Of a stretch of DNA of 14,075 bases, positions 9,452 to 12,336 are shown one piece after another. The position numbers and the translations under genes were made by a program. The stretch comes from a virus (taxonomy: Duplodnaviria; Heunggongvirae; Uroviricota; Caudoviricetes): IMG/VR virus record IMGVR_UViG_2648501920_000010, one strand, 5' to 3'. The notes beneath the pieces were generated by a model. That model worked only from the letters and a program-made list of their open reading frames with translations. It made no database searches and was not told where the DNA came from. Every line of letters begins with the position of its first letter. Position 1 is the stretch's first letter.

Positions 9452-9568
9452 GAATCCTCCCGGGCGGGATAATGTTGTGAGTCAGATAAGGAGCAGGCTG
9501 AAGTCCGGAAGTTACAGGACAATGGCAGAAGGGAGACTACAGCCCGCAATTCGAAAAAGACCGCGCAG

Positions 9569-9598
9569 TTGCGCAGAGTGATTACTATGGGGTATTAT
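9569..9598 (+). promoter_or_regulatory. Candidate sigma70 promoter (TTGCGC - 18 bp - TATTAT) pointing away from nanS-p
   Basis: Hexamers read directly from sequence; the spacer length and the terminator ~50 nt downstream make a short plus-strand transcript plausible. Confidence 0.3.
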
Positions 9599-9644
9599 TC
9601 GCCAGCTGAAATATTACTTCACGTTTTATTGTTTATTCCTTGCC

Positions 9645-9673
9645 GCCCGCGTCTCCCAGCGCGGGCTTTTTTT
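9645..9673 (+). terminator. Intrinsic terminator on plus strand (GCCCGCG-tctcccag-CGCGGGC + T7)
   Basis: Perfect 7-bp GC stem, 8-nt loop, followed by TTTTTTT on the plus strand. Confidence 0.6.
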
Positions 9674-9681
9674 GTCCATAA

Positions 9682-9913
9682 GAAAGCCCCTCCGGAGAGG
9701 GGCTAAAGCCGCGTATCTGTATCATCATGCACATGGTGCCGGGTGCCTCCCGGTGAGTTCAGCCCGGTGCCACTAAACCCGCGTCATTCTCGTTTTGATA
9801 ATCAGAGATTATACCGTCACCAGTCGCCCCTCCGCTCAGGGGGATTCACCATGCGAAATTTTTTTAACAAATGCCCAGTCTGACAGGCAACTGTCAACTT
9901 ACTGAATTGTGAG
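9682..9913. repeat. Copy A of a degenerate ~220-bp direct repeat
   Basis: Shares ordered blocks with copy B: gaaagcccctccggagaggggct; catggtgccgggtgcctcccggtga; gcccctccgc(t/a)cagggggattcaccatg; ttttaacaaa; ctgaattgtgag. Confidence 0.6.
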
Positions 9914-9948
9914 CAACATAGCATTTAACGGGGAACCTGTTTTCTGCA

Positions 9949-9977
9949 GTAAAAAGGCCCACCGGAGCGGATGGGCC
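9949..9977 (-). terminator. Intrinsic terminator-like hairpin on minus strand
   Basis: Plus strand aaaaaGGCCCA-ccggagcgga-TGGGCC; on the minus strand the 6-7 bp stem is followed by TTTTT. Confidence 0.45.
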
Positions 9978-10168
9978 TGGAAGGATAGCGGTCATGTGAT
10001 GCCGGTTTCCCGGTAACTCAGCACCGGTATCTGAGTCAACGTTTTCTCTACTGGGTCATTTCCGATACGCCCTGCCTGCTGACAGGCTTTCATCACATCT
10101 GAAAATATAGCACCCTGACTGATACTGTAGTACCTAAGGTTCCAGAAACTGTGATGTATCCGGCACAG

Positions 10169-10381
10169 AAAAGCCCCTCCGGAGAGGGGCTGGAGAGTGG
10201 CGCTATGTGCCATTGCATGGTGCCGGGTGCCTCCCGGTGAATTCAGTACCAGCACCTGAATCCGCGATTATCCCATATACCTACTCGCTGATTGCCCCTC
10301 CGCACAGGGGGATTCACCATGCCAGTTTCTTTTAACAAACTCCCCGCAAACCAGACAACAGTCAACCGCCTGAATTGTGAG
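10169..10381. repeat. Copy B of the degenerate ~220-bp direct repeat
   Basis: See copy A. Identical 20-bp hairpin agcccctccggagaggggct at 10172..10191 versus 9685..9704; the other blocks are in the same order with indels. Confidence 0.6.
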
Positions 10382-10387
10382 ACATTT

Positions 10388-10410
10388 AAAAAAAGCCCGC
10401 AAAAGCGAGC
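10388..10410 (-). terminator. Intrinsic terminator immediately after the tRNA cluster (minus strand)
   Basis: Minus strand gctcgc-tttt-gcgggc followed by TTTTTTT, starting ~16 nt past the 3' CCA of the last tRNA. Confidence 0.6.
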
Positions 10411-10425
10411 CAGGGAAAATAAGTG

Positions 10426-10502
10426 TGGCGCGTTGTACTGGATTCGAACCAGTGACCGATTGCTTAGAAGGCAATTGCTCTGTCCGGCTGAGCTAACAAC
10501 GC
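10426..10502 (-). tRNA. argO: tRNA-Arg (anticodon UCU)
   Basis: Hand-folded 77-nt cloverleaf GCGTTGTTAGCTCAGCCGGACAGAGCAATTGCCTTCTAAGCAATCGGTCACTGGTTCGAATCCAGTACAACGCGCCA: 7-bp acceptor stem, D arm GCTC/GAGC, anticodon loop CUUCUAA, canonical GGTTCGAATCC T arm, encoded CCA. Gene symbol by analogy with the Stx-phage tRNA cluster. Confidence 0.8.
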
Positions 10503-10599: not shown

Positions 10600-10675
10600 T
10601 GGTGGCCCTTGCTGGATTTGAACCAGCGACCTGGCGATTATGAGTCGCTCGCTCTCACCACTGAGCTAAAGGGCC
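10600..10675 (-). tRNA. ileZ: tRNA-Ile2 type (anticodon CAU; could formally be Met)
   Basis: GGCCCTTTAGCTCAGTGGTGAGAGCGAGCGACTCATAATCGCCAGGTCGCTGGTTCAAATCCAGCAAGGGCCACCA: canonical cloverleaf, anticodon loop CUCAUAA, encoded CCA; closely resembles E. coli ileX/ileY-type tRNA from memory. Confidence 0.8.
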
Positions 10676-12122: not shown

Positions 12123-12244
12123 GTCTTTTTCCTTTTTCCGGTTAACGTGACATACCAATAACTCTTGTCGAAAAAGCCAGCAAGCTGAAAGACCCGTATT
12201 CGCAACCACCAGCGTGTTTACTGTACTGACGCGATTTTGGGCAT

Positions 12245-12275
12245 AAAAAAAAACCGCCTGACGGCAGTTTTTTTT
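12245..12275 (-). terminator. tR'-like intrinsic terminator downstream of the putative Q gene
   Basis: A9-CCGCC-tgac-GGCAG-T8: near-perfect 13-nt inverted repeat. On the minus strand the GC stem is followed by a T9 run, ~60 nt after the putative Q stop. Confidence 0.55.
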
Positions 12276-12336
12276 CTTACTTTGCCATCGCGTACAAAAT
12301 CGGCAAAATATCAGATTTATACGAAACGTACGCTAT
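12276..12336 (-). promoter_or_regulatory. Candidate late promoter (pR'-equivalent) and qut region
   Basis: Positional inference: the interval between the putative Q stop and the tR'-like terminator contains TATAAA (-10-like) with a weak TCAATT 17 bp upstream on the minus strand. Not verified. Confidence 0.3.

Follow-up and report, generated by a model that had tools for sequence, protein, structure and literature searches.

The window analyzed here (14,075 nt, from the Caudoviricetes record IMGVR_UViG_2648501920_000010) carries a pair of degenerate repeats, and the question raised by the locus is what these repeats are and on which strand they are read. A first-pass annotation had described two units of ~220 bp with common blocks in the same order and had interpreted them as a sign of selection on structure, not on coding. 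The units are real: a repeat finder run on the window recovers three collinear segments, 9826-9913/10294-10381 (88 nt, 80% identity), 9732-9762/10216-10246 (31 nt, 97% identity), and 9683-9704/10170-10191 (22 nt, 100% identity), and the distance between the two copies is, depending on the segment, 468-487 bp. A 20-bp hairpin, reported as identical in both copies, matches at 20 of 20 positions and has two exact sites in the window, compared with 0.00 expected (200 shuffles, up to two mismatches allowed).

Comparing the two copies on the minus strand, we found seven blocks with 86-100% identity and four intervening stretches with 25-45% identity and one 15-nt indel, consistent with the diverged spacers described earlier. 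The blocks are an upstream block (12/12), a -35 region (12/14), an extended -10 (11/12), the 5' strand of helix P1 with a junction (11/11), hairpin P2 (17/18), hairpin P4 with the 3' strand of P1 (23/23), and a terminator (20/20); the low-identity parts are the promoter spacer (4/12), a variable region (13/45), a linker (9/27), and a tail (5/11). The annotation had also assigned a short ATG-initiated frame to each copy. On the plus strand of both copies, the third hairpin is indeed followed by an ATG, but the frame that it opens is not conserved: it has 10 codons (MRNFFNKCPV*) in one copy and at least 35 in the other, and as the lengths differ and the sequences are unrelated beyond residue 7, the short plus-strand frame is not a conserved feature.

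Assignment to the STnc100 family

Both repeats are paralogous prophage STnc100 sRNA genes on the minus strand, members of a family already catalogued. In an Rfam scan of the window, RF02076 matched copy 1 (9883..9674, minus strand, 165.4 bits, E 5.4e-38) and copy 2 (10351..10161, minus strand, 136.3 bits, E 1.6e-30), in both cases over model positions 1-206. The gathering score of RF02076 is 47 bits, and membership was taken as a score of at least 47 over the full model; copies 1 and 2 exceed this and a middle element, described below, falls short of it with 30.1 bits. The MFE folds, RNAalifold, and covariation all give the STnc100 consensus structure, a closing helix around hairpins and then a terminator, and the locus has the location of the family, the late region of an Enterobacteriaceae prophage or phage. 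The outer copies are no different from the family, and we are highly confident that the units are sRNA genes. No other Rfam family matches the repeat region. AgvB, AsxR, and Esr41 have no match in the window, either at the gathering score or at E ≤ 1, which rules out these other EHEC phage sRNA families as the identity of the repeats, and a plus-strand match to OmrA-B in the window (25 bits, E 0.14) is not significant. We also rejected IpeX, the sRNA of K-12 DLP12, as a member of the same family, the 10 kb of MG1655 DLP12 (571000-581000) giving no Rfam match, and PasE, a CsrA-guiding sRNA, as a relative: it is a 56-nt RNA from a different locus and unrelated.

With family and strand known, the blocks of the first-pass annotation can be named. 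The 20-bp perfect hairpin is a Rho-independent terminator with a U-rich tail, and ccggg-tgcct-cccgg and cccctccgc(t/a)caggggg correspond to hairpins P4 and P2, respectively; "ttttaacaaa", seen from the opposite strand, is TTTGTTAAAA, the extended -10, and "ctgaattgtgag" is the upstream conserved block CTCACAATTCAG. The "attcacc ATG" contains no start codon but is complementary to GCAUGGUGAAU, which forms the 5' side of closing helix P1; the ATG frames are an artefact, because they were read on the nontranscribed strand. The interpretation in terms of RNA structure rather than coding agrees with the full-length covariance-model match, the minus-strand fold, and the covariation, with the corrections that two of the "blocks" are promoter elements, not RNA structure, and that the transcribed (minus) strand had not been named. 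Coordinates of all features are listed in Table 1.

Table 1. Features of the three sRNA genes in the window
Feature	Coordinates	Strand	Basis and remarks
Upstream conserved block CTCACAATTCAG, copy 2	10370..10381	-	~-59 to -48 from predicted start
Predicted sigma-70 promoter, copy 2	10329..10357	-	-35 TTGTCT (10357-10352), 17-nt spacer, extended -10 TGtTAAAAG (10337-10329)
STnc100 sRNA gene, copy 2 (upstream)	10161..10322	-	RF02076; model R1, 149.4 bits; MFE fold is a four-way junction
Putative seed linker, copy 2	10215-10192	-	
Intrinsic terminator, copy 2	10172..10191	-	AGCCCCUC-UCCG-GAGGGGCU then UUUUCUGU; terminator scan
Extended -10 TGcTATATT, middle paralogue	10104..10112	-	Sequence reading; conserved in PhiR5_2 and E. 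albertii middle copies
STnc100-like middle paralogue	9946..10098	-	Rfam, model R1, MFE fold
Linker, middle paralogue	9992-9979	-	ACCGCUAUCCUUCC
Intrinsic terminator, middle paralogue	9955..9978	-	AGGCCCAUCCGCUCCGGUGGGCCU then UUUUU; terminator scan
Upstream conserved block CTCACAATTCAG, copy 1	9902..9913	-	Segment comparison
Predicted sigma-70 promoter, copy 1	9861..9889	-	-35 TTGCCT (9889-9884), 17-nt spacer, extended -10 TGtTAAAAA (9869-9861)
STnc100 sRNA gene, copy 1 (downstream)	9674..9854	-	RF02076; model R1, 123.1 bits; fold z -2.22
Putative seed linker, copy 1	9731-9705	-	
Intrinsic terminator, copy 1	9685..9704	-	AGCCCCUC-UCCG-GAGGGGCU then UUCUUAU; terminator scan

The repeat pair itself carries minor weight, as the Infernal and Bakta pipelines already label STnc100. 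The family is a very abundant one of prophage sRNAs in the Shiga-toxin slot of lambdoid phages. EDL933 has 11 copies, and RNA-seq shows transcription of STnc100 copies in this strain, with one confirmed by Northern blot (PMC5331693); a homologue has been measured by qPCR in STEC vesicles. Reviews assign no function to STnc100 proper (PMC9029176).

Promoters and transcript ends

Both outer copies show the same layout, TTG(C/T)CT, 17 nt, TGtTAAAA(A/G), and then GCAUGGUG after 7 nt. The 5' end of PasD2, an sRNA of EPEC E2348/69, has been estimated from RNA-seq at NC_011601 741157 (table S6 of PMC8550237) and aligns with the G of GCAUGGUG, 7 nt past the -10. Because the PasD2 end falls on that G, we placed the starts of the window copies at 10322 (copy 2) and 9854 (copy 1); these exact 5' ends and the use of the promoters at the array are predictions. 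The first ~30 positions of the Rfam model appear to be promoter and not RNA. Copies of other genera have a different, TTGACA-type promoter at the same relative position, and these equally placed promoters support the units being autonomous transcription units. At the 3' end of each copy, the terminator scan found minus-strand terminator-like sites, with 10 found compared with 1.0 expected.

The upstream block lies at the same distance in the copies of PhiR5_2, E. albertii, and one further E. coli locus (L030), and it may be a candidate regulator site. The motif TCACA is present on the minus strand at 9907-9911 and 10375-10379, corresponding to -58..-54 from the outer starts, and at ~10151-10155 for the middle copy. 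With a weak TGnnA 6 nt upstream, it gives an 8/10 match to TGTGA-N6-TCACA centered at ~-61.5, the class I CRP position. The motif also occurs in the PhiR5_2, E. albertii, and E. ruysiae copies and may likewise mark a regulator site.

RNA structure and covariation

The first-pass annotation had proposed folding of both strands and a search for compensatory substitutions, and both agree with a structured minus-strand RNA. In comparison with shuffled sequences, the minus-strand folds of copies 1 and 2 had z-scores of -2.2 and -1.3, respectively, whereas the plus strand, with z -0.5, folded no better than shuffled; the fold z-scores are overall modest, ranging from -1.3 to -2.4. Between copies 1 and 2, P3 shows one G-C → A-U double change and one U-G → C-G change.

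For a wider comparison, homologues from 8 enterobacterial genera were collected with a two-anchor pattern scan and then confirmed with Rfam. The scan of the genome collection also gave ~14 chance matches in unrelated phyla, as expected from the information content of the pattern, and these were discarded; the set is without Salmonella, the family's namesake, where the exact-match pattern did not recover any copy. From an unbiased MAFFT alignment of 19 homologues, RNAalifold recovered P1, P2, P3, P4, and the terminator. Among the 19 homologues of the 8 genera, 95.3% of the cells were paired, in comparison with 84.4% in column shuffles and 45-51% with slid partners, and 58 cells were changed on both sides versus 21.5 in shuffles, a number reached by 0 of the 500. 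Four of the five covariation measures were reached by none of the 500 shuffles and the remaining one, the number of pairs changed on both sides, by 4 of them. The signal comes mainly from P3 and the terminator. The sequences of P2 and P4 do not vary across the 8 genera, and these two hairpins therefore show no covariation signal; their conservation could alternatively come from protein binding or a DNA-level constraint. A covariance model built from 17 bona fide members, with the middle paralogue excluded (model R1), lacks P3, because MAFFT shifted that region in the alignment behind it (A5), and the P3 covariation comes from another alignment (A4). The covariation over eight genera supports the four-way junction and the terminator, and together with the compensatory change in P3 between the copies, it decides the structural test in favor of RNA structure.

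A third, diverged paralogue and the cassette

When compared with phage PhiR5_2, the segment between the two copies shows higher conservation than do the variable regions of the sRNAs on either side. In a permissive Rfam scan, it matched STnc100 in full length (10122..9949, minus strand, E 9e-4), and its 30.1 bits set it under the family threshold of 47. Model R1 scored 39.2 bits at 10098..9946 (E ~5e-8, a rough value), and PasD1 and PasD2 score at the same level with this model, 39.0 and 39.5 bits. Folded alone, the element gives the family architecture from a different sequence (z -2.35): its closing helix is AUGUGAUG/CAUCACAU, one of its three hairpins is CCGG-GAAA-CCGG, and a linker and a strong terminator are also present. 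In a model-guided alignment, its P1 is maintained via a G-C to A-U double change. By reading the sequence, we found a good extended -10 for it (TGcTATATT) but no good -35. With this diverged paralogue between the outer copies, the array consists of three sRNA genes, and as the middle one scores below the curated threshold, STnc100 membership is under-called by it.

The order of upstream, middle, and downstream members is also found in phage PhiR5_2, E. albertii, and E. coli CRE1493, and 673 of 5426 E. coli genomes carry the middle element. Copy 2 of the window has a near-identical counterpart in the downstream copy of both E. albertii and CRE1493, indicating that flanking members have been shuffled among cassettes, and single-copy phages align as chimeras of window copies 1 and 2. 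At one locus of Escherichia sp. MOD1-EC7003 (L029:6113-6303, minus strand), an STnc100-type body (98 bits) is followed by a PasD-like linker and the terminator GGCUGCGCAUGGCGCAGCC, which suggests a modular swap of the 3' seed and terminator part between the STnc100 and PasD families. Given the shuffled members and this fusion, the conserved blocks apparently double as recombination points. Two further arrays were seen: two PasD-like copies ~290 bp apart in E. albertii (L022:2108-2576, minus strand; 53 and 31.5 bits with model R1) and three family members in Kosakonia (L021:1582-3106, minus strand). The tandem arrangement is, on account of these two, not peculiar to the three-gene cassette.

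Locus context and distribution

The window corresponds to a lambdoid prophage late region, and the array lies in the stx slot of Stx phages. On the minus strand, the order is DUF968, RusA, Q, an N6/N4 DNA methylase, tRNA-Ile(CAT)/Arg/Arg, the sRNA locus, and a 617-aa SASA/DUF1737 (NanS-p-type) esterase, followed by a holin, DUF1327, a lysozyme, an IS3 insertion, and the terminase Nu1/gpA; Pfam confirms Q, the methylase, the SASA esterase, the holin, the lysozyme, and the terminase, all on the minus strand. Homologues at the other examined loci occupy the same slot, and in Stx2 phages, published work locates one STnc100 copy, 75 nt past the end of stx2B on its downstream side. Variation in the sRNA of the equivalent slot has been linked statistically to HUS outcome (PMC12711010).

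The 851-bp locus (9600-10450) is found with 100% identity in many ExPEC/APEC genomes, including CE10, S88, and APEC O18. Of 5426 complete E. coli genomes, 2914 carry at least part of it and 352 the whole arrangement; the number of places per genome has its median at 2 and reaches 13, and every copy inspected lies within a prophage late region. A known repetitive extragenic element found genome-wide was one of the outcomes that the first-pass annotation had held against its own reading, and a known multi-copy element it is; on the other hand, its blocks are more conserved than its spacers and it is no extragenic repeat of the REP/BIME type, which are ~35-40-nt palindromes with hundreds of sites, whereas this unit has 150-210 nt, a promoter and a terminator, few copies, and a distribution confined to prophages.

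A fourth sRNA gene, at 9492-9673 on the plus strand, converges on the array. It is 96% identical to the EPEC RIL-seq sRNA E2348C_1409.E2348C_1408.IGR (182 nt; EHEC homologues EcOnc08/21/42) and antisense to the esterase-gene leader of the late transcript. Its plus-strand terminator at 9645-9666 is followed by T7, and its seed CCUUGCC (9638-9644) is complementary to GGCA(A/G)GG, the reported target motif of the EPEC sRNA. What is added here to a catalogued family, i.e., the paralogue hidden between the copies, the conserved cassette of three genes, and the convergent fourth gene, is incremental.

Proposed mechanism, relatives, and alternative explanations

In the mechanism that we propose, each paralogue would be transcribed from its own sigma-70 promoter (TTGyCT, 17 nt, and TGtTAAAAr in the outer two) and end at its own Rho-independent terminator. 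The predicted RNA of ~150-180 nt consists of a closing helix (GCAUGGUG/CACCAUGC) around three hairpins, a single-stranded linker, and a terminator hairpin with a U-tail, its core being near-invariant across genera and its linker different in each of the three paralogues. By homology with PasD1/PasD2 and EcOnc27/sRNA103, the RNAs most likely act in trans by Hfq-assisted base pairing, with the linker directly 5' of the terminator as the probable seed. In the lysogen, they would be made from their own promoters, and after induction, the array would also be part of the Q-antiterminated late transcript. We infer the Hfq dependence, the location of the seed, and any targets from this comparison. The mechanism is favored because Hfq-bound relatives exist and the anatomy (structured body, unpaired linker, U-tailed terminator) matches theirs; the U-tailed terminator and the unpaired linker 5' of it are present in the folds and are consistent with the class of Hfq-dependent sRNAs, without being proof of it. 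As the linkers of the three paralogues differ, different target sets are predicted for them. Two of the linkers contain pyrimidine-rich runs (CUCUCC, CCUUCC), for which Shine-Dalgarno regions might be pairing partners. We consider trans-acting, Hfq-assisted pairing moderately probable, and the explanation in full, i.e., tandem STnc100 genes with a diverged third, own promoters and terminators, and such pairing as the most likely mode of action, very probable. A conserved array with three different putative seeds makes a convenient natural experiment for target finding.

The closest described systems resemble the array in part. PasD1/PasD2 of EPEC E2348/69, homologues of EcOnc13, show Hfq-dependent stability and form RIL-seq chimeras at their seed-bearing 3' linker (PMC8550237), and Zhu, Shabalina and Storz consider PasD and STnc100 to be homologues (bioRxiv 10.64898/2026.05.13.724894). 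PasD1/PasD2 resemble the window copies in promoter layout, 5' end (GCAUGGUGAAUCC), overall fold, and slot, with PasD2 immediately upstream of the same 617-aa SASA esterase. On the other hand, they score 41 and 38 bits against RF02076, under 47, and their linker, seed (UGUGAG), and terminator GGCUGCGC...GCGCAGCC are absent from the window copies, the 3' third being unrelated in the alignment. Taking the UGUGAG seed and the PasD terminator as marks of PasD membership, the window copies, with other linkers and the AGCCCCUC terminator, do not belong there, and as the seed is absent, PasD targets are not transferable to them; furthermore, a dispersed distribution is reported for the PasD copies of E. 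coli, whereas the STnc100 genes of the window are in tandem. EcOnc27 (Sakai)/sRNA103 (EDL933), likened to the array by overlap of annotation, is an Hfq-binding sRNA over an STnc100 annotation in the equivalent slot of a Stx2 phage, just downstream of stx2B, and its overexpression raises fimZ and espA transcripts (PMC12711010). It is a single gene, whereas this prophage has three sRNA genes and no stx. OmrA/OmrB and PrrF1/PrrF2, adjacent duplicated sRNA genes with conserved structure and terminator and a diverged rest, provide an analogy only, as they are core-genome genes unrelated in sequence to the array; OmrA/B moreover keep the seed conserved, whereas the array keeps the core conserved and the presumed seed variable.

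The three terminators could also have a role in cis, as insulators or attenuators that shut off the esterase and lysis genes in a lysogen and that RNA polymerase passes only once modified by Q; the sRNAs would then be by-products of termination, like StxS of tR'. The arrangement lends itself to this, with three minus-strand intrinsic terminators one after another, past the constitutively expressed tRNAs and ahead of the esterase start, downstream of Q, and single-copy versions directly after stx2B in Stx phages, and a cis terminator role can coexist with sRNA function. As the explanation of the array we nevertheless find it unlikely: each unit has a conserved promoter-like element at a fixed distance, termination needs no 100-nt covarying four-way junction conserved across genera, and the homologues accumulate as Hfq-bound RNAs with trans partners. 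Slightly less probable still is that the invariant core is a protein platform, e.g., for CsrA via GGA in the P2, P4, and terminator loops, and the RNA a sponge or a guide. P2 and P4 are invariant in sequence, not merely in structure, GGA is found at the P4 loop (CCGGGAGGCA) and the terminator loop (CCGGAG), and among the CsrA-bound chimeras of EPEC, PasD2 ranks first in abundance with 20% of the chimeric reads (bioRxiv 10.64898/2026.08.12.744399). The GGA motifs are, however, partly buried in stems, the middle paralogue has no P2 GGA, and the argument is extrapolated from a distant relative under the family threshold; even so, with PasD2 at the top of the CsrA-bound chimeras, Hfq-assisted pairing may not be the entire mechanism.

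Readings without a functional RNA fare worse. Selfish or recombinogenic DNA, either REP/MITE-like or module-boundary homology for moron swaps, would account for the up to 13 places per genome, the mosaic arrays, the fusion of STnc100 and PasD, and the chimeric single-copy phages, but the elements are limited to one slot of lambdoid late regions and not dispersed, lack terminal inverted repeats and target duplications, preserve RNA helices by compensatory substitutions, and have homologues that are expressed and Hfq-bound; we give this reading very little credence. Even less credible is that the units encode small proteins, in the plus-strand ATG frames or in a minus-strand 87-aa/33-aa ORF. RefSeq and GenBank annotate short hypothetical or pseudo CDSs at the locus, an ATG follows the third hairpin in both copies, and ribosome footprints are seen on some EDL933 STnc100 copies (PMC5331693). 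Against this, there is no Shine-Dalgarno sequence, the minus-strand ORF overlaps the copy 2 terminator as well as the middle paralogue, and the last 33 codons of the 87-aa ORF differ from PhiR5_2 by ~6 nonsynonymous changes and 1 synonymous change, lying in an RNA hairpin that stays paired. With the unrelated plus-strand frames and these changes, we rejected coding by the ATG frames and by the 87-aa ORF.

Returning to the array as trans-acting sRNA genes, we can extend the reading tentatively to STnc100, PasD, and the middle element as one modular superfamily, a proposal that is possible rather than probable. The invariant four-way-junction core would be a protein-binding chassis (for Hfq and/or CsrA), the 3' linker and terminator would be swapped by recombination to retarget the RNA, as the fusion at L029 suggests, and the three-gene arrays of the stx slot would provide several seeds at once; around one third of such a family, the sub-threshold paralogues in 673 of 5426 E. 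coli genomes, would be missed by standard annotation.

Other features of the window

An IS3-family element at 3944-5150 (plus strand), between the lysis and terminase genes, contains an ALIL frameshifting pseudoknot (4225-4324, 75.9 bits), and the matching CE10 record annotates a frameshift in the Rz-like lysis gene (~5240-5707); with this insertion and frameshift, the prophage may be defective. A sub-threshold Rfam match to STnc370 (12204-12280, plus strand, 39.4 versus 54 bits, E 0.005) lies just downstream of Q, where pR'/tR' is expected, on the opposite strand. The tRNA at 10600-10675 (minus strand) is called Met (anticodon CAT) by ARAGORN, whereas the identical gene is tRNA-Ile in RefSeq; it fits the ileZ-like lysidine-modified tRNA of the lambdoid ileZ-argN-argO cluster.
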